Of a DNA stretch of 64,000 nucleotides, positions 3,884 to 52,248 are shown piece after piece; position 1 is the first letter of the stretch, and each line of letters opens with the position of its first letter. The stretch lies in sequence record MH383160, one strand, 5' to 3'. The position numbers and the translations under genes were made by a program. Source of the DNA: Escherichia phage UB. The notes beneath the pieces were generated by a model. It saw nothing but the letters and a program-made list of their open reading frames with translations, ran no database searches and was not told the DNA's origin.

Positions 3884-4849
3884 TTAGAAATCTTCGTATT
3901 CGTACCCTTTTGCAAGTACTAGCTTCTTAAGCTTTTGCATAGCTTCACTGTACTTTCGATGTATTGATGAACGGGATTTAACATATTTTCCATTATCATC
4001 AACAAAACCATTATCAGCAATCTCACGAAGCGTTTCAGGTTCATATTCACCTAGACCATGAACACGCTGGATAATCTCACGTTCTTTAGTACTCAATTCG
4101 TTAGTCAGTTCATTGATAGCATAACGTAAAGGTGCACGAATACTATCAACATTGAGGTTAAAATCAGAAGCAGGTGAATGAATAATGTCACCTAGTGTAC
4201 CATCGGTAACACCGTCTAATGGTGCATCCAGCGAAGTGTATTCGCTTTGAAATAACAAACAGTTATTAACATGCTGAATCTCAATCCCAGTACCCTCTGA
4301 GATTATTTCAGGAGTTGGGCGAACACCATGTTTACGCATATATTCCTGACAGAATCTTTTTACTTTGATCTTATGAACACTCATATAACGTGGGAAGTGT
4401 ACCATATAGTTAGCGTCAGAACTTTCGTTATAGACTGTCATGTAAATACTAGAAGAAGCATAGGTAATGAACTTAACATTCTTATTAAGATCAAAGGTTT
4501 TTAGTGCTCTCATGAACCCCTCAACACCATATGAAATCTTATCTTCAAATGGGATATAACAAGTACATTTACTTGCTACATCAATAATCAGTCCATAATT
4601 GTAACGAACTAACAGTTCAGTGTTTTTCTTTACATTGATACCAGCTTGAATATCACGAATTAGATCTTCATTGGAAACATTTGGTGGTCGCTTAAGTGTA
4701 ATATTATATTTGAAACTGCTTTGTACTTTACCTTCATTTTCATCTTTATCTTCAACGAAATCTAAGGCTTCTAGTGTGTTGACTTCTTCATTAGCAAAAC
4801 ATTCATCCAGTACTTCTTCGGCAATTGTATTTAAATCAAGCTTTTTCAC
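3884..4849 (-). CDS. RNA polymerase sigma factor, sigma-70 family (321 aa)
   Basis: Region-2-like LLVRYNYGLIIDVASK...GFMRALKTFD...KFITYASSSI and region-4-like LSTKEREIIQRVHGLGEYEPETLREIA...SRSSIHRKYSEAMQKLKK. Confidence 0.7.
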   Translation of the reverse strand: MKKLDLNTIAEEVLDECFANEEVNTLEALDFVEDKDENEGKVQSSFKYNITLKRPPNVSNEDLIRDIQAGINVKKNTELLVRYNYGLIIDVASKCTCYIPFEDKISYGVEGFMRALKTFDLNKNVKFITYASSSIYMTVYNESSDANYMVHFPRYMSVHKIKVKRFCQEYMRKHGVRPTPEIISEGTGIEIQHVNNCLLFQSEYTSLDAPLDGVTDGTLGDIIHSPASDFNLNVDSIRAPLRYAINELTNELSTKEREIIQRVHGLGEYEPETLREIADNGFVDDNGKYVKSRSSIHRKYSEAMQKLKKLVLAKGYEYEDF

Positions 4850-7800
4850 TTACATCTCCTAATGACGAAATCAAAATCGATATACATTAATATTATCATC
4901 TGTGAAGCAATCATGGTTGTGCACATCCATGAAAGTACTAAACACTTTATCATATAAAGTTGTATGTTCTTCATGAATAGCAGCATCTAGCATGTATTCT
5001 CCACCACTTCCCATAAAGAAAGTGTAGTCTTCATGTAGATATTCAAGTTTTTTAATAAACTTTCCTTTAGTTAAAATCATATGAATAACATAATCTTTAG
5101 AAAGAAGCACACAATGGCAACTTAACTTTCTGTCAGGTATAACTGGTACTTTATTAATTAACCAATCCAGTACTTTATCAATTTCACTTACTACCCCACT
5201 AGCACTGAATAAACGGTCATGTACATATAAAGTTTTTTGATTAACAACTCCATATTGATATTTTGGTCTTAGTGGGAAAAAACCAAATAAGTTTCGTGGT
5301 ATAGTTGACGTAACTCTAGAATCGGTAATCAATAAATTTAATCGTTTATCAATATAAACAGTTGTCATATTAAACCTTATCTAAGAATTTATCGTATATA
5401 TAAAATTCTTTATCGGTGAATACATTAATTCTAGTATCGAATCTTTGCATTGTGTTCATATACAATGAACTTTTTAAATAAAAATACAAAGCAACAAATT
5501 CTGATATATGCATATTCTTTTTATTGTTACATAAATTCTTAAGCATTTTGATGCTATCAAATTCTTTTTCATCAAATCTGTATTGGTAAAAATTGTATCT
5601 ATTGGAACGGCACTCATAGATACGAAGTGCCATTATATCAATACATGCTTTAGATTTACAGTACTTATTCAATACGTCATAATCACCCGTACATAATGCT
5701 ACAAAGATTCTATGTGCGAGTGTAGCTTTGCCTTCAATCGTATAATAGCCAAAAAATTTAATGATTAAGTACTGAATGAATGTAATCATTTGATTTAGAA
5801 TTTCTCCGAAATTACTAGAGTGTCATCATAATCTTCTGCAATATCATGAAGAACTTTTAAGTTACTTTCACCAGAAACGCTTTTTACTTCGTTCAAAAGA
5901 TAGTTTAGATCAACTTTAGTTACTTTTTCTGAATCAAACACACAGAAAGTTAATTCAGCGTTTGGACAGATCTTCTTCAGATTATCAGCAACAACTTGTT
6001 TGAAGTTGAAAGATGGGGAAGCAACCAGGTTAACTGCAACGAGAATAGATTTCATAATGTTTTCCTTTTTAGCTGATAATTAAATTAGGAGCACATTGTA
6101 CTCCATATTATTTGTTATGTCAAATACTTTTAGATACCAAGTGCAGTAGATAACTCTTTACGTTTGTTATATGAATCAGATTCAATCTTACTTTTCTTGT
6201 TGAAAAGGGATTCGATATCCTTATAGATTGCTTCGATAGATTTAGTTACTACCCATTCTGATTCTTGAAGCATACCTTGGAGTCGTGCGTACTCAACTTT
6301 GATAGTACTGCGAAGTTCTTCACAAACTTCTTCATTCTTAATTAGTGCAGCACTAAGTTCTTTGACCTTATCGATGTTCATAAGTTCCTTACTCTAATTT
6401 GTTTTTAACAAAATAATTATATATAACATACTAAATTATGTCAAGTATTTTTAGTACCTTCTTCTGCCATTTTTGTGATATACCAATTAAGTATTGATTT
6501 GTGTACCATAAAAAATGTGAATGCAAATATAGCAATAGCTGCTGATGTAACACTATTAGATAATGACCCAAGTTGGATGTTAGTACCTAAAATAACAATA
6601 AATGGATACAACACAATCAATCTACTGTAAGGTTCGTCTCCAGTATCACGGAGAAATCCAAGCCTTTCATGATCAGTATCCATAGTGACAATTGGACAGA
6701 ACATAAGTGCAGACATAAGAGCAATACCAATTTGTGCTACATTGGAAATTGTAAACCACAAAGGATTTAAACCATATGAAATATTATTTTCTGTACAGTA
6801 GTAACCAAACGAATTGAATGCACAAACTAAAAATACAAAAATACAAATCTTATTATAGCCTCTCATTTGTTTAGCTCCGTTAATTTTCGTTTAACTTCTA
6901 GATCATGAAACTCATCGGCATATGAGTTTTGAACAGTTCTGATGTATTCCAACATAACAAACATAGTTCCACATACCCATAGATATGTATAGTAATCAAA
7001 TACAAATGCATATAACATACACGGTACTAAAATGAAAGTGTAAACAAAACTATATCGTGTAGTTCCAAATACTTTCAGATATAACAAACGTCGATAATCA
7101 CGGGCAAATGTATTGATGCACACTGAAAATGTAATTAATGTATACCATGAAATACCCTGAATTAAACCTGAAACATTTAAAAGTTTATGTTCATCGGAAA
7201 ACCCCAGTGCATTTAGCACTGGAGCCATAACCCAACCAATAATACTAATAAGAAAAAGATATTTTGCATTACTTAGTGTGAACATATTACTTTAGTCCCC
7301 ATGCTTTTTTGATTGCATCAACAGAGTTTTGGTCCACTACTTCCTTTTTTTCTGATGTAGTTTGAAGTTTATTAATTACATATTCCTTTGCATCTTTTTC
7401 TATCATAAATTTACCATCAACCAACACACCAAAAACTTTAGAATTTCGGGCTGGATATGGATTAATTTCATCAAGAGTACGGACTTTCTTATCAACTATA
7501 ATGGCTTTGATGTAACCAGTTTCAAGTACTGTTGTAATCACAGTCATTTCAATTGCAACTGGTGAATCTTCCCAATACGCAATCCATTTAGTAAAGCTAC
7601 GATCAGGTGAATCTTTTGTGCATTTTAATTTAATTGCACTATTAAAAATGTATTGTTTAAAATTGTCATCGACAACTTCACTAATACTAAAATAACCTTC
7701 ACGCTCTTCAACATTACGTTTGAAATTTGTAGCTAATACATCCATTTTCCATCCCCCTTGGGTTACTTGGTGTGTTAATTATAATACTAAGAATCTTTGT

Positions 7801-8262
7801 TGTCAAACTTTTCCCTCAAATATTTTTCTATTAATCTAATTTGTGTTGGTGGTAAGATAAAGTAATCGTACATAGATTTACTACCATGTATCGAACAACC
7901 TACACTAATACTATAATCATATGGATATAAGTATATTGGATCTTGTATATCAGGTATGAAAACTATTCTTGATATATTACCATTTCCTATTCTTACTTGG
8001 ACGTTATCATTATTATTAATATAATTTCTTATACAGTACTCAATTATACCATTTACTTTAGAATCATAACCATAATTTTTATATTCAGGAAAAATGAAAT
8101 AGCGTTCATGGTATAGATATGAGCATAGTAATGCTGGGAAAAAATTCCAAAAACCTTCATGCTTTGCAATTGTTTGTGCATATTTAAAATGATTAGCATT
8201 ACTAAAAATATTATACAGCACAAAATACACAAATGGACTTACCAACAACACTATTGTTAACA

Positions 8263-8724
8263 TCAGAAGCCTCTGTATTTTTCATACACTTCAACGCATT
8301 CCATGATTTTGTCATCGTCCATCATATCATAGCCTTGTAGAAATTCTTCTTTATCAACCTTCCCTGCCATCATATCTGTGTCAGAAATTCTGGAGTCATA
8401 GAAGTAATACATATCTTTATAGTACTGGTTTTTGTGCTGCTCAATCTTTACTTTAGCATATCCAGCACAAAATGAAGGAGATTTAACAACTTCCCATTTA
8501 TGCTTCTTGATGGGTTTATCATTAGCATGTTTTTCCCTGTATGTCTGACGATAACGTTCACGCATTTCAGGCATGTATTCTTCAGCAGTACGTTTAGGGG
8601 GAGTTTTACCAGTCCCAATAGTTTTAATAGTTTGACGTTGTTCTTCTGCGTGTACTGGGTAAATAAAACATGATGTACCAAACAGTACTGCTACGATAAC
8701 CATAAAATTCTTAAACATAATCAA
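8263..8724 (-). CDS. Secreted or periplasmic hypothetical protein (153 aa)
   Basis: N-terminal signal peptide MIMFKNFMVIVAVLFGTSCFIYPVHA. Confidence 0.45.
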   Translation of the reverse strand: MIMFKNFMVIVAVLFGTSCFIYPVHAEEQRQTIKTIGTGKTPPKRTAEEYMPEMRERYRQTYREKHANDKPIKKHKWEVVKSPSFCAGYAKVKIEQHKNQYYKDMYYFYDSRISDTDMMAGKVDKEEFLQGYDMMDDDKIMECVEVYEKYRGF

Positions 8725-11655: not shown

Positions 11656-13389
11656 TAGCTGGGAAGGTTTTAAACATATAGTGACATTGTACTAAATCAT
11701 CGAACTTCAAGCCGAAGTCTTTAGTACCCATCAGTGTGTGGTAAAAATAATGCGAAATTGTATTAGTTTCAGCGTCTTTAATATAGATACCAAATTCGGT
11801 ACAGCAAAACTGAACAACTTCATTATAACTTTCTAACTTGGAAATTACAAGTACTTGATCATAAGAATTTTTATCAAATCCAATGATGTACATTTCCTCT
11901 GTTTCTGGGTGTACAATCATCCCACCGCGAGAAATAATTTTCTCGAAGTTACTGCTCAAGTACTGAATTGTTGAACTTAAGTTCATTTACAACTCCTTAC
12001 GTATTACTCGTCCGGTAAGATGTTCATCTGTACAGAACTTCATTATAAATGCTTTTAGATGGAAGTCTTCTAAAATTCTATATGCTTGCTTTTTCATAAC
12101 GACTTCCTTCTTCTCCACATCAACAATTATATCATGTTTCTCGTGAAGTTCCTGGATCATTTGATATGAATTCAAACTTAGTACGCTCATAACCACCAAT
12201 GTCCTCCATCTCCCACAAAATTTGAACTGCCACTTCTAATTCGTGGTGAATTTGAAAATAACCATTACTTGCAGTATAGATGTAGCCATTTTTAGTAATT
12301 GCATAACCCCACTTTTTACTTTGAGAATGCATCTCACGTTTCAACCCATAAGGTGATGGTGGCTTCTTGACTGGTTCTGGTTCTCGGTTTTCGTTGTAAA
12401 TCTCTTGTTCGATTCGCAACGCTTTATGATATGAGTATACATGAATCAGGCGACAAAGTACAATAGTAATGCAACAAATAATTGTAAATGTTATCAAGCT
12501 CATCAATTTGCCCTCTGCCTAGATACATATTCATTAATTGCATCTTCCAAATCATACCCTGACATTTTTACATTATCAATTGAAACATGATATTTTTTCA
12601 GCACTTTTTGTCCAGCAGTGTTCTCCCATATAGACCCATCAGGCTCAATATGAACTTTATGGTTCAGGATGAAATCGAACATTTCTTCTTTTGATAAGTT
12701 TGCTTTACGGGTTTCAATGTGATTAGTATTAAGTAATTCACGAGTATGTTTAATGCCATATTCAGTGTACTCACCAATACTACGATGCAAAACTTTTAAC
12801 TGCTCGGCAGCAGTCTCTTCATCATAAACATGAATAGTTTCAGTACTGTACAAAATATCCTGAATATTACCAGTACTCACTTCTGTCCATGTGTCTTTGA
12901 AATGCACTTTGATTGTTTTCATGGAAGCTCGTATTAGTTATATGCTGTGAATAGGTCAATGTTTTTATCATCTACACTGATTAATTTACCAGTTGAACTA
13001 ACAAACACAATATTACCACCAGGGGTGATTTGAACACGCTGGTTTACTGAATATTGATCACTAAGGTTATAATTAGCCCATTCAACTACATAACGCTGTT
13101 CAACACCGTTAGTATCATATAGATAAACGTGTGTAACGTCACGCATTTTTAAACGGTCTAACAGTGTAGAGTTGTCCATGAAATCCGATGGTGTATTGCT
13201 GCGTAATGCAATACCGAACTCACCGATAACAGTACTAATTGTCAGTCCGTTTGAAAAACGGCTACAAAGAGTTTTCTCATCAGCAATATGCATCCATAAA
13301 ACATTCTTTACATCAATATCAACAAATTCACAGTTTTCAAAAACCAAACCTACTTTGGAAACTTTACCATTAAATTGCATTAGTAACTC

Positions 13390-13824
13390 CTATTTTTTAT
13401 ATTTTAAAATTAAATCACTCACGGCTTTCATTAGCTTATATGGAATAGCTAATTCTTGAACAGTACTTTCCATAAAATGTTCTTCTTCTGTATCATAAAA
13501 TGTTGAACTAAAGTGTTCACAATCATCTATACTATCATAAAAAGAAGACGTAAGTTTATCAACAATGACAGTGATTTGTTTGTCAGTTTTGGCACATCCT
13601 ACCTGAACGGTTAATCCAATATCATCAGCCTCTACACGAATTATAAACGAATTATTAGTATAGTTCAGCCAACAATCTTCACCAAAGTATACAACACTGT
13701 GTTTCTTCTGAAATGAAGTTGCGGTGTTAAGAACACCAATAACAACATCAACTGTTTTTTCATTTAAAATATTAGACATTTTTATTCCTGCTTCGTATGT
13801 TTCGTGAAATCTCAAATATTCCAT
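13390..13824 (-). CDS. Member of C-terminal EExFFQxS-motif paralogue family (divergent)
   Basis: C-terminus TEEEHFMESTVQELAIPYKLM; start probably internal to the listed ORF. Confidence 0.4.
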   Translation of the reverse strand: MEYLRFHETYEAGIKMSNILNEKTVDVVIGVLNTATSFQKKHSVVYFGEDCWLNYTNNSFIIRVEADDIGLTVQVGCAKTDKQITVIVDKLTSSFYDSIDDCEHFSSTFYDTEEEHFMESTVQELAIPYKLMKAVSDLILKYKK

Positions 13825-14200
13825 TCAACTGCTCAACAGTTAAACCCTGTAAATCGTAAACTGTTGATAGTTGAAAGAACATCTCTGAATCTATAGTATC
13901 ATGTTCAATTGGAAGACTCAAGAGGTCTTTATTAATAAAATAATCATATGTTCGAATTGTCAAAGAATCACCAAAGATATCAATGTAAAATTTCGGAACA
14001 TTATGTAACGAAACATCTATTAATATGTTTTCAGCATATCTACAAGAAATTTTAGAATTATTTTTATAAGATTGGTATGAAAAATTATAAGGTTCATCGA
14101 CCGATGTGTATGATGAGGTATCACCTTCGGAAAATATTACACCACATTCAATAAGATGTGTTAACGACTTAGGTGGAATTTTTAACATTTCACTTCCCAT
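13772..14200 (-). CDS. Member of C-terminal EExFFQxS-motif paralogue family
   Basis: C-terminus SEMFFQLSTVYDLQGLTVEQLNGIF. Confidence 0.55.
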   Translation of the reverse strand: MGSEMLKIPPKSLTHLIECGVIFSEGDTSSYTSVDEPYNFSYQSYKNNSKISCRYAENILIDVSLHNVPKFYIDIFGDSLTIRTYDYFINKDLLSLPIEHDTIDSEMFFQLSTVYDLQGLTVEQLNGIFEISRNIRSRNKNV

Positions 14201-14618
14201 GCTTACTCATATTACTACGGATCACCCCACTAAGAAAACATATTTTCCTTAATGTATCATAACTGATATTTGTAAGATCATGTACAAAATTCAACTGCAA
14301 GTACATTTCTTCAGTTAATTGATTAAATGTATCATCAACATGAATGTTAGTATGTTCCGTTATATCTATTTCTATATTATTTTCCCAAATATCAATGCTA
14401 ACAGCATAGTCTGATGTATGTCTGGATTGAACTGAAATAAAAATATTATTACTGTTGTATAATGTCTCTGTGTATCCATTCAAAAATGATCCAACGACAA
14501 CATCAAAAATGCCATCTCTAATTGGGTTTTTTGTTTCAAACGTATCACTACAAACTTGACGGTATACAATGTCAACATACTTATCAATTAAAGTAAACAA
14601 ATAACTCATTGCATTCAC
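14190..14618 (-). CDS. Member of C-terminal EExFFQxS-motif paralogue family
   Basis: C-terminus TEEMYLQLNFVHDLTNISYDTL. Confidence 0.5.
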   Translation of the reverse strand: MNAMSYLFTLIDKYVDIVYRQVCSDTFETKNPIRDGIFDVVVGSFLNGYTETLYNSNNIFISVQSRHTSDYAVSIDIWENNIEIDITEHTNIHVDDTFNQLTEEMYLQLNFVHDLTNISYDTLRKICFLSGVIRSNMSKHGK

Positions 14619-48560: not shown

Positions 48561-48958
48561 TTAATATATTACTCCTGATCTTTGGTTCTAGCTCGACGTG
48601 GTGCTTTCTTCTCTTCAGAAACCTCAGCTTCTTGTTCTTCGGGCTTAACTTCAAAACTCTCATCATCCCATACTTCATCCGTACCATGTTCAGTACTATG
48701 AAGTTGATGTTCAGGGATATAATCAGGAATTTGCATTTCTCGTTCTTTTTCTTGTATCAACTCTTCACGAGTTTTAATAATTGTTCCACCGGAACCGATT
48801 TTATCACCACGTGCGTTTAGATTAGCATTACCCAATGCTACCTGATGTTGATTTTGGTACTTGAGCATATCCATGTCAATTGTTGTACCACGATAAGTTG
48901 TATGTTTAGACATATCAAAATCCTTTTATTGTATGTGTGATATAAGCCTACAATAAAC

Positions 48959-48988
48959 ATTATATCACATGTTTTTCTACCATTTCAA
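48959..48988 (-). promoter_or_regulatory. Sigma-70-type promoter (TTGAAA-N18-TATAAT, extended -10 TGTGATATAAT)
   Basis: Read on the minus strand upstream of 48569..48913. Confidence 0.45.
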
Positions 48989-49495
48989 AAATTCGTTAAC
49001 ATCAAGTTCGTACTTCAATGAATCTACCATATGTAGTCCAATCAAAAACAAACAGTATGATGCAACCGAGCTTCCACGACCTAGACCCCAAAAGATCTCA
49101 TTTTCTTCCATATAATCAACAAGCCATATCATACATCTTAGTAGCTTTGTCATATTATAATATTCATATAAATCAAGTTCATACTCAACACGTTTTCGTG
49201 CTTCATCGGATGTGCATTTTTGTAAGAAAAAGTCACGCAGATTTATATTGTCGTATACTGGATCATATCGCCACAGTTCATGATTTTTATCATGCTCAAT
49301 TGTATAATCCAGCATACGTTGTTCTAAGCCAAATTTTTTACAGTTATCATTGAATTTCAACCTTTCAGGTTCATCAATTTCCTGCAATTGTAAGTACTGG
49401 ATATCTGCACCGCAATTGATTGCATAAACAACTGCGTTAAGATTACATTTCACATCACCATTGGGACTTATAAATCTGTTTCCTTGTACTTTCAT
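48977..49495 (-). CDS. Small protein with a DnaE (Pol III alpha) palm-domain motif (172 aa)
   Basis: C-terminal RVEYELDLYEYYNMTKLL...WLVDYMEENEIFWGLGRGSSVASYCLFLIGLHMVDSLKYELDVNEFLKW parallels E. coli DnaE ...[35 protein letters not shown]. Confidence 0.5.
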   Translation of the reverse strand: MKVQGNRFISPNGDVKCNLNAVVYAINCGADIQYLQLQEIDEPERLKFNDNCKKFGLEQRMLDYTIEHDKNHELWRYDPVYDNINLRDFFLQKCTSDEARKRVEYELDLYEYYNMTKLLRCMIWLVDYMEENEIFWGLGRGSSVASYCLFLIGLHMVDSLKYELDVNEFLKW

Positions 49496-49767
49496 TTTTC
49501 TTCTTCTGGGCCTCTTCGTTGTCAGTTAGATATGAATCCATATCGAAGATACATGGGTCTTCTTCGTCATAAACAGTTTTTTCTTTTTGTCCTTGGCGAA
49601 GTTCTAGTTCAGCATAACATTGATTTAAGACAGTTTGCATATTACCAATAATCATGTCGCTTAGGCCAGCAGCACGAGCAGAAGTTAAACGCATTGACTG
49701 TTCATTAATTTTTAACTGTAGTTCTTTTTCCGTCATTCCAGACGGGTCAAAAAACGGATTAAACATA

Positions 49768-52188: not shown

Positions 52189-52248
52189 TATCTATAGATT
52201 ATTTATATAAAGGACAAGGAAGACCCATAAGGTCTTCCATTAAATATA

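Follow-up and report, generated by a model that had tools for sequence, protein, structure and literature searches.

The 64,000-nt stretch of DNA analysed here (the window; Escherichia phage UB, record MH383160) belongs to a Rak2-like jumbo myovirus. Over the 2.5 kb surrounding the ORF under study, identity to Escherichia phage PBECO4 and to its closely related phages is 99.8%; PBECO4 is a T4-superfamily jumbo phage of the genus Asteriusvirus with a genome of about 348 kb, and its position 190,939 corresponds to window position 1. Exactly where originally predicted, the minus strand carries a 172-aa ORF with an ATG start (Table 1), which is PBECO4 gp449 (YP_009150763.1) and a member of PHROG 11127, to which it aligns end to end (E = 3e-87, residues 1-171 on positions 1-171 of 171). 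RefSeq labels the protein 'DNA polymerase', and several GenBank records name it 'DNA polymerase III alpha subunit'. Its 5' end shares 41 nt with the end of an upstream 103-aa ORF, while on the 3' side a 63-nt spacer leads to a 114-aa ORF. A virion structural gene lies on one side of gp449 and a GroES-like gene on the other, and the same stretch also holds genes for a clamp loader, topoisomerase II, Dda helicase and RNase H.

Table 1 Features of the gp449 locus, of its wider surroundings and of the gp488 gene (window positions unless stated otherwise)
Feature	Position	Strand	Description
172-aa ORF (gp449)	48977-49495	minus	ATG start; predicted N-terminal nucleotide-binding unit of a split minimal Pol III alpha-like enzyme
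Codons of gp449 residues 98-170	48986-49204	minus	Gapless against E. coli DnaE 320-392 (BLASTP, hmmsearch, PDB profile search, hhalign)
Codons of G137-L-G-R-G-S-S-V-A-S146	49058-49087	minus	Invariant GxGRGSSVxS motif
Conserved gp449 C-terminus (K171, W172, stop)	48977-48985	minus	Fixed breakpoint of the proposed split
gp488 (212 aa)	270767-271405 of PBECO4	same as gp449	YP_009150802.1; PHROG 11778, E = 2e-108
Upstream 103-aa ORF	49455-49766		Overlaps the gp449 start
Downstream 114-aa ORF (PBECO4 gp448)	48569-48913	minus	PHROG 14844, unknown function
Sigma-70-like promoter candidate	region 48937-48988	minus	Over the last gp449 codons; rejected
Terminator-like hairpin	52218-52238	minus	Directly followed by the late-promoter motif
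T4-type late-promoter motif	52200-52207	minus	TATAAATA
Same-strand ORF run	5370-8724	minus	Head-to-tail ORFs of about 140-155 aa each
Same-strand ORF run	12132-14618	minus	Head-to-tail ORFs of about 140-155 aa each

Both flanking ORFs were considered as further polymerase parts and rejected. The upstream ORF has no Pfam match and belongs only to a PHROG of unknown function, and the downstream ORF, gp448, proved to be a chance extension: a tblastn alignment with the full-length DnaE of a faecal phage (see below) crosses three stop codons into gp448, which lies in the same frame, and pairs 'KDFDM' with 'PDFDIDF'. Neither DnaE nor the family of the C-terminal half described below shows significant similarity to gp448, in which Pfam detects nothing.

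gp449 is the third gene of a run formed by an 806-aa virion-protein gene at its head, the 103-aa ORF and gp449 itself. Just upstream of the 806-aa gene, a terminator-like hairpin is directly followed by a T4-type late-promoter motif (TATAAATA). With 3 copies vs 12.7 expected, the motif is under-represented in the window, this being the only minus-strand copy, and in PBECO4 it also precedes the major head protein gene. Its position suggests that gp449 may be transcribed from a late promoter. At the 3' end of gp449, a sigma-70-like promoter with an extended -10 element (TTGAAA, 18 nt, TG-n-TATAAT; 11/12 matches) and a 10-bp inverted repeat in the 63-nt spacer were rejected as real signals, promoter-like sites occurring at chance count and the hairpin having a z of -1.3 vs shuffled sequence.

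DnaE similarity and conservation of gp449

The only Pfam match of gp449 is PF07733 (DNA_pol3_alpha), covering residues 92-171 (E = 1.9e-9, 37.9 bits vs a gathering cut-off of 23.9) and spanning only profile positions 16-95 of 260. Ten NCBIfam models of Pol III alpha or DnaE match the same segment, with E-values down to 1.6e-8, BLASTP aligns it with E. coli DnaE at 23% identity over 73 ungapped residues, and hhalign of the gp449 family with a four-sequence DnaE profile gave a probability of 97% (E = 5.8e-11). The original prediction of a stand-alone short protein with homology to the DnaE palm was therefore correct, as was the E. coli DnaE string quoted with it, and the profile search against DnaE families that had been proposed as a check turned out significant. 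It had described the C-terminal 70 residues as colinear with the palm; the homology holds, but the similarity extends over about 125-130 residues, about three quarters of the protein, and the catalytic part is not included, gp449 stopping before the DxD strand. For roughly the first 40 residues a clear counterpart in DnaE is lacking; hhalign pairs residues 8-70 with the final part of the PHP domain (E. coli 197-275), but at low per-column confidence.

The aligned segment comprises two palm helices, the GRGS loop (residues 139-142) and a helix pair closing in 'EFL' (E. coli 'RFL'). GLGRGSS (137-143) represents the GS motif, corresponding to GRGSG at 361-365 of E. coli DnaE and to the wider G(P)GRGSGAGS at about 359-368, and based on DnaE structures we take the loop to be the 'GS' nucleotide-binding motif of the Pol-beta-like nucleotidyltransferase fold. 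The polypeptide ends at about E. coli residue 394, two residues past 'EFL' and 7-8 before the DxD strand with D401 and D403. Consequently, the catalytic aspartate triad (E. coli D401, D403 and D555) is absent from gp449; the PHP domain, the thumb, complete fingers and the beta-clamp-binding and OB domains are missing as well, and only about 11% of full DnaE is covered. Judged from its sequence, gp449 is the non-catalytic part of a palm and no polymerase by itself. Modelled singly, its predicted structure reaches a pLDDT of 85.

An unverified 9.9-kb scaffold from a human faecal phage (MT836517.1) encodes a full-length DnaE of 1,166 aa (4310-7807). Among four full-length DnaE proteins compared, it gave the best tblastn match to gp449, with 28% identity over 163 columns that include the chance run-through into the gp448 ORF; in a database search it showed 39.5% identity over gp449 residues 96-170. 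This DnaE could be a lead on a phage-DnaE origin of the split form.

Conservation of gp449 is strong. Compared with phage 121Q, there are 19 synonymous nucleotide changes and no amino-acid change, and with two further relatives dN/dS is about 0.02, indicating strongly purifying selection. Searching 5.8 billion proteins with gp449 retrieved 176 relatives, nearly all of 171-187 aa, and an exhaustive search of 1.84 billion cluster representatives with a profile of its family (the N family) yielded 479 clusters (50% identity) with E<=1e-30. The best 150 of these 479 clusters all measure 152-196 aa, and in them profile position 172-174 lies within about 10 residues of the C-terminus, usually among the last 0-3. 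In an alignment of 39 members (down to 31% identity), G137, G139, R140, G141, S142, S143, V144 and S146 are invariant, and the proteins stop 1-3 residues past 'EFL', short tails being rare. Neither flank of gp449 contains DnaE-like sequence in any frame, and when ordinary DnaE queries were run against the complete PBECO4 genome, gp449 was the sole match. gp449 is an old, widespread and selected stand-alone protein.

The gp488 family and its co-occurrence with gp449

At a distance of 30 kb from gp449, roughly 15.8 kb past the end of the window, PBECO4 encodes another short 'DNA polymerase', gp488 (Table 1), which we infer to be present in the phage of the window from the 99.8%-identical PBECO4 reference. 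The family counts 785 relatives, which are 190-220 aa long. Across 40 members with identities as low as 40%, the invariant sites are D16, D18 and D20 ('DIDID'), H48, G51, K80 and D82 ('KVD'), R149-P150-x-K152, H190 and Y194, and their counterparts in E. coli DnaE are DFDVD 401-405, HAGG 511, KFD 553-555, RPGP 639 and NKSH 757. All three catalytic aspartates are there, D16, D18 and D82 corresponding to D401, D403 and D555, and the fingers motifs IRPxK and KKxHAxAY match FRPGP and NKSH, respectively.

hhalign of the gp488 family against DnaE (E = 3.3e-5) places H48, K80/D82 and IRPGK on E. coli H511, K553/D555 and FRPGP. A PDB profile search matched exclusively DnaE in collinear segments, but with E = 0.38, and a Foldseek search of the PDB with the AlphaFold model of gp488 (pLDDT 93.8) returned DnaE as all nine best matches, the top six with probabilities of 0.99-1.00 and E-values from 5e-3. 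BLASTP found no match between gp488 and E. coli DnaE, and Pfam gave a weak, sub-threshold fingers match, with 0 of 40 members tested reaching the threshold. The predicted homology of gp488 to DnaE is convincing by profile-profile and fold comparison alone, and the protein is too diverged for the DnaE queries against the complete genome, a check proposed with the original prediction, which picked up gp449 alone. The earlier claim that no other DnaE-like sequence lies on either side thus stands for the window, but not for the genome, where this diverged candidate for a catalytic partner is located about 30 kb away.

In gp488, about 27 residues stand in place of the DnaE thumb (about 433-510 in E. 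coli), and about 80 fingers residues are missing, among them the 'LRRAMGKK' segment, which in DnaE contacts the incoming dNTP. The gene is surrounded by genes for primase, helicase, a DnaQ-like exonuclease, UvsX, UvsY and SSB. In many GenBank records (GAP32, pEa_SNUABM phages, Muenster), members of the gp488 family are labelled 'hypothetical protein' or 'putative membrane protein', which looks like systematic mis- or under-annotation. A homologue of the C-terminal half with 35% identity is also encoded by Alishewanella phage vB_AspM_Slickus01 (OQ508957.1), the genome of which, at 141,644 bp, is well under the 200-kb jumbo limit.

Searching 50,697 phage records with divergent queries located the N-terminal half (N) in 94 and the C-terminal half (C) in 95. 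N and C counts are equal in Escherichia (33), Pseudomonas (11), Erwinia (8), Salmonella (8), Xanthomonas (4), Yersinia (4), Cronobacter (2) and Pectobacterium (2), Klebsiella being the sole mismatch among the listed genera (N 10 vs C 11), for which the 109-kb record W12-3 may be the source. Both halves occur together in distant lineages (Rak2-like, PA5oct-like, Atu_ph07 and Stenotrophomonas phage CM1), and the PBECO4 genome contains one N, one C and zero other DnaE pieces. Furthermore, the breakpoint is complementary within one fold, the N family closing with 'EFLK' and the C family opening with 'xTDIDID'. The N-half ends 2 residues past 'EFL' and the C-half begins about 12 residues before DIDID, without extra sequence at either junction and without an intein or Hint match in Pfam; this leaves no room for intein halves and therefore excludes covalent joining as in the cyanobacterial split DnaE. 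A fused N+C protein was not among the matches listed when a fused profile was run against 5.8 billion proteins and the N profile against 1.84 billion representatives.

The two genes lie 30-34 kb apart in phages of the Rak2-like type, whereas the distance is 43 kb in PA5oct and reaches about 180 kb in Atu_ph07, and in IMG/VR the partner lay within 10 kb of none of the top 80 N-loci and of none of the top 80 C-loci. These two IMG/VR lists share no contig, and co-occurrence was therefore counted on complete phage records. Such lack of adjacency is unusual for obligate subunits, and the co-occurrence could alternatively stem from shared membership of a conserved core genome.

A proposed two-gene minimal C-family enzyme and its alternatives

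Taken together, the sequence and fold comparisons make it highly probable that two genes encode a minimal C-family (Pol III alpha-like) nucleotidyltransferase with gp449 as its N-terminal subunit, an architecture that Rak2-like, PA5oct-like and related 'group 2.2' jumbo phages would share. gp449 would contribute the first part of the palm, namely its supporting helices and the GRGS loop; in DnaE, this loop binds the incoming nucleotide by its triphosphate. gp488, opening where gp449 stops, would contribute the beta-strand with two metal-binding aspartates (DIDID), the KVD strand with the third aspartate and a lysine (K553/D555 in E. coli) and shortened fingers, so that both chains together may form a non-covalent minimal C-family core of 384 residues with one rebuilt active site. 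Since neither half is expected to be catalytic alone and intein halves are absent, non-covalent association would be required. The reading named as contrary to the original prediction, a piece of an intact split polymerase, is essentially what emerges here, with the split lying between two genes and their proteins, not between exons.

The thumb, PHP, beta-clamp-binding, OB and tau-binding domains are absent from both chains. Because the thumb, part of the fingers and every clamp- and DNA-binding domain have been lost, the architecture argues for distributive synthesis at most, and for genuine templated polymerase activity of the pair we predict roughly even odds. PBECO4 additionally encodes gp512, a complete family-B polymerase with exonuclease and polymerase domains, and the likely role of gp449 and gp488 is auxiliary DNA synthesis or repair beside this replicase. 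It is from comparative analysis that we infer the physical association of the two proteins, their catalytic activity and their biological role.

The explanations proposed originally were a remnant of a larger polymerase gene and a decoy or inhibitor of the host replicase, and neither is supported by the data. A decaying pseudogene fragment of a once full-length phage DnaE would account for the coverage of only about 11% of DnaE, and the orthologue CBB_328 has indeed been called 'truncated' in its genome paper (PMC5259590), yet with a dN/dS of about 0.02, lengths of 152-196 aa and a common C-terminal end point in the best 150 of 479 representatives, no flanking DnaE-like sequence in any frame and a PHROG (11127) that is a full-length family of 171 positions, decay is effectively refuted. 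It is also very improbable that gp449 is a domesticated DnaE fragment that has the subunits of host Pol III as binding partners and inhibits or takes over the replicase of the host. Host replication is a known phage target and a short protein homologous to part of the replicase would suit such a purpose; however, gp449 lacks every DnaE region known for binding epsilon (PHP site), beta (clamp motif) or tau (C-terminus), and its 23% identity to E. coli DnaE over 73 residues speaks against recent capture from the host. Phages infecting very different hosts, as well as hundreds of metagenomic clusters, moreover show the same motifs, the invariant nucleotide-binding loop would be needless for a decoy, and the strict pairing with a catalytic half points in another direction. 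Somewhat better placed, although still quite unlikely, is an N-half that works independently of gp488, e.g., as a nucleotide-binding regulator or as an adaptor that serves PolB or the phage clamp loader, in which case a shared core genome alone would explain the co-occurrence. The genes are never adjacent, the gp449 model folds confidently alone (pLDDT 85) and the first 40 or so residues are without clear DnaE counterpart, all of which this explanation accommodates; it does not account for a breakpoint that lies inside a single fold and is complementary to the start of gp488, for a GRGSS loop as the most conserved part although it constitutes only half an active site, or for the phyletic match of 94 vs 95 across very divergent lineages.

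More serious, although still improbable, is the possibility that the gp449-gp488 heterodimer is a non-processive or template-independent nucleotidyltransferase acting, e.g., in tailing, in the synthesis of signalling nucleotides or in DNA modification, and possibly gated by the assembly of subunits that are regulated separately. Consistent with this, the pair has no thumb, is about 80 finger residues short and lacks all clamp- and DNA-binding domains, the phage already owns a complete family-B polymerase with an exonuclease domain, and the N and C genes belong to different transcription units, the N-half lying behind a virion-protein gene that has the T4-type late-promoter motif at its head. 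Against it, the retained IRPxK and KKxHAxAY motifs line template and nucleotide in DnaE, both genes are located within DNA replication and recombination clusters, and an alternative substrate is without positive support. If the halves were expressed under different regimes, the pair would represent a stripped Pol III palm that requires both of them for activity and possibly uses a non-canonical substrate. That the two-piece enzyme is an assembly-gated nucleotidyltransferase or, alternatively, a surviving ancestral C-family core instead of a reduced one appears unlikely to us. We favour the two-gene minimal Pol III alpha-like enzyme described above.

With respect to this enzyme, PBECO4 gp495 deserves mention. 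It is a 272-aa DnaQ/RNase T-type 3'-5' exonuclease ('DNA polymerase exonuclease subunit') encoded 4.3 kb from the C-half, with a short match to a quorum-sensing-regulated virulence-factor domain (QSregVF_b) at its C-terminus. Because PolB already has its own exonuclease domain, gp495 could be a putative proofreader of the minimal Pol III-like enzyme, against which it has to be considered that the PHP domain, the epsilon binder in bacteria, is missing here.

Known split polymerases and significance

A split 'minimal' Pol III alpha has been described for group 2.2 jumbo phages by Iyer, Anantharaman, Krishnan, Burroughs and Aravind (2021, Viruses 13:63, PMC7824862), with an NTP-binding unit (N-terminal) and a Mg2+/template-binding unit (C-terminal) encoded by distant genes in Rak2-, Atu_ph07- and PA5oct-type phages. 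Those authors noted that phages with the split units also have a family-B polymerase, suggested from comparative genomics an auxiliary function in synthesis or repair next to PolB, and speculated that the split form is ancestral (pre-LUCA-like) and not reduced (PMC7824862). This is apparently the same entity as gp449/gp488, and all its features were reproduced here; what our analysis provides beyond that study are numbers only, i.e., the breakpoint residues, the invariant sites, the dN/dS, the 94 vs 95 co-occurrence and the lack of fusions and of adjacency. The split-enzyme reading was thus already published in 2021, and the gp449 finding is real but already known. The annotation as (truncated) Pol III alpha is older and dates to the first Rak2-like genomes (CBB_328; PMC5259590). 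A literature search for experimental work on either half brought up papers on split-intein DnaE and the comparative study of 2021 and none with experiments on the two proteins, and the omics paper on PA5oct does not mention the N and C genes.

The DnaE and PolC structures (PDB 2HNH, 2HPI, 3E0D, 5FKU, 5LEW, 3F2B) have the palm fold in common with gp449 and gp488; the GRGS loop of gp449 is collinear with them, and so are the DxD motif plus third aspartate, the K553 equivalent and the two finger motifs of gp488. DnaE, however, is a single chain of ~1,160 aa with PHP, thumb, full fingers, beta-binding, OB and tau-binding regions, whereas the phage proteins of 172 and 212 aa are devoid of those, the cut falling between the GS motif and the DxD strand. 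Like the phage pair, cyanobacterial split DnaE (DnaE-n and DnaE-c of Synechocystis and Nostoc) derives Pol III alpha from two distant genes. The cyanobacterial halves carry intein halves, are joined by protein trans-splicing into full-length DnaE and are split elsewhere in the protein. In contrast, the phage halves are without intein halves. Two-gene family-B gp43 of some T4-related phages is another split core with separately encoded pieces. In the multi-piece RNA polymerases of phiKZ-like phages, as in the phage pair, the catalytic core is distributed over separate polypeptides and non-covalent assembly is expected (PMC7824862). Split gp43 and the phiKZ-like RNA polymerases belong to other enzyme families and their assembly and activity have been shown experimentally, whereas gp449/gp488 are known from sequence.

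If the proposed architecture is true, the 172 and 212 residues would represent the smallest known C-family core, a natural two-chain enzyme that defines the minimal catalytic unit. C-family polymerases are the bacterial replicases and normally consist of single chains of more than 1,000 residues. The question is raised why phages owning a complete family-B replicase keep a split enzyme under strong selection. On the practical side, the analysis removes the remnant and decoy readings, pinpoints a partner gene that many records mislabel and supplies concrete residues for experiments on a split enzyme whose published description is computational.

Two observations concern genome records and gene organisation. 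In the record of Escherichia phage CMSTMSU (MH494197.1), the match to the N-half is split over two places and reaches a coverage of only 81%, and the C-half falls into four pieces; errors of sequencing or assembly seem a likelier cause than true decay of the genes. In addition, two regions of the window consist of long head-to-tail runs of same-strand ORFs (Table 1); such runs, found likewise at 99-116 kb of PBECO4, may be arrays of paralogous small genes.
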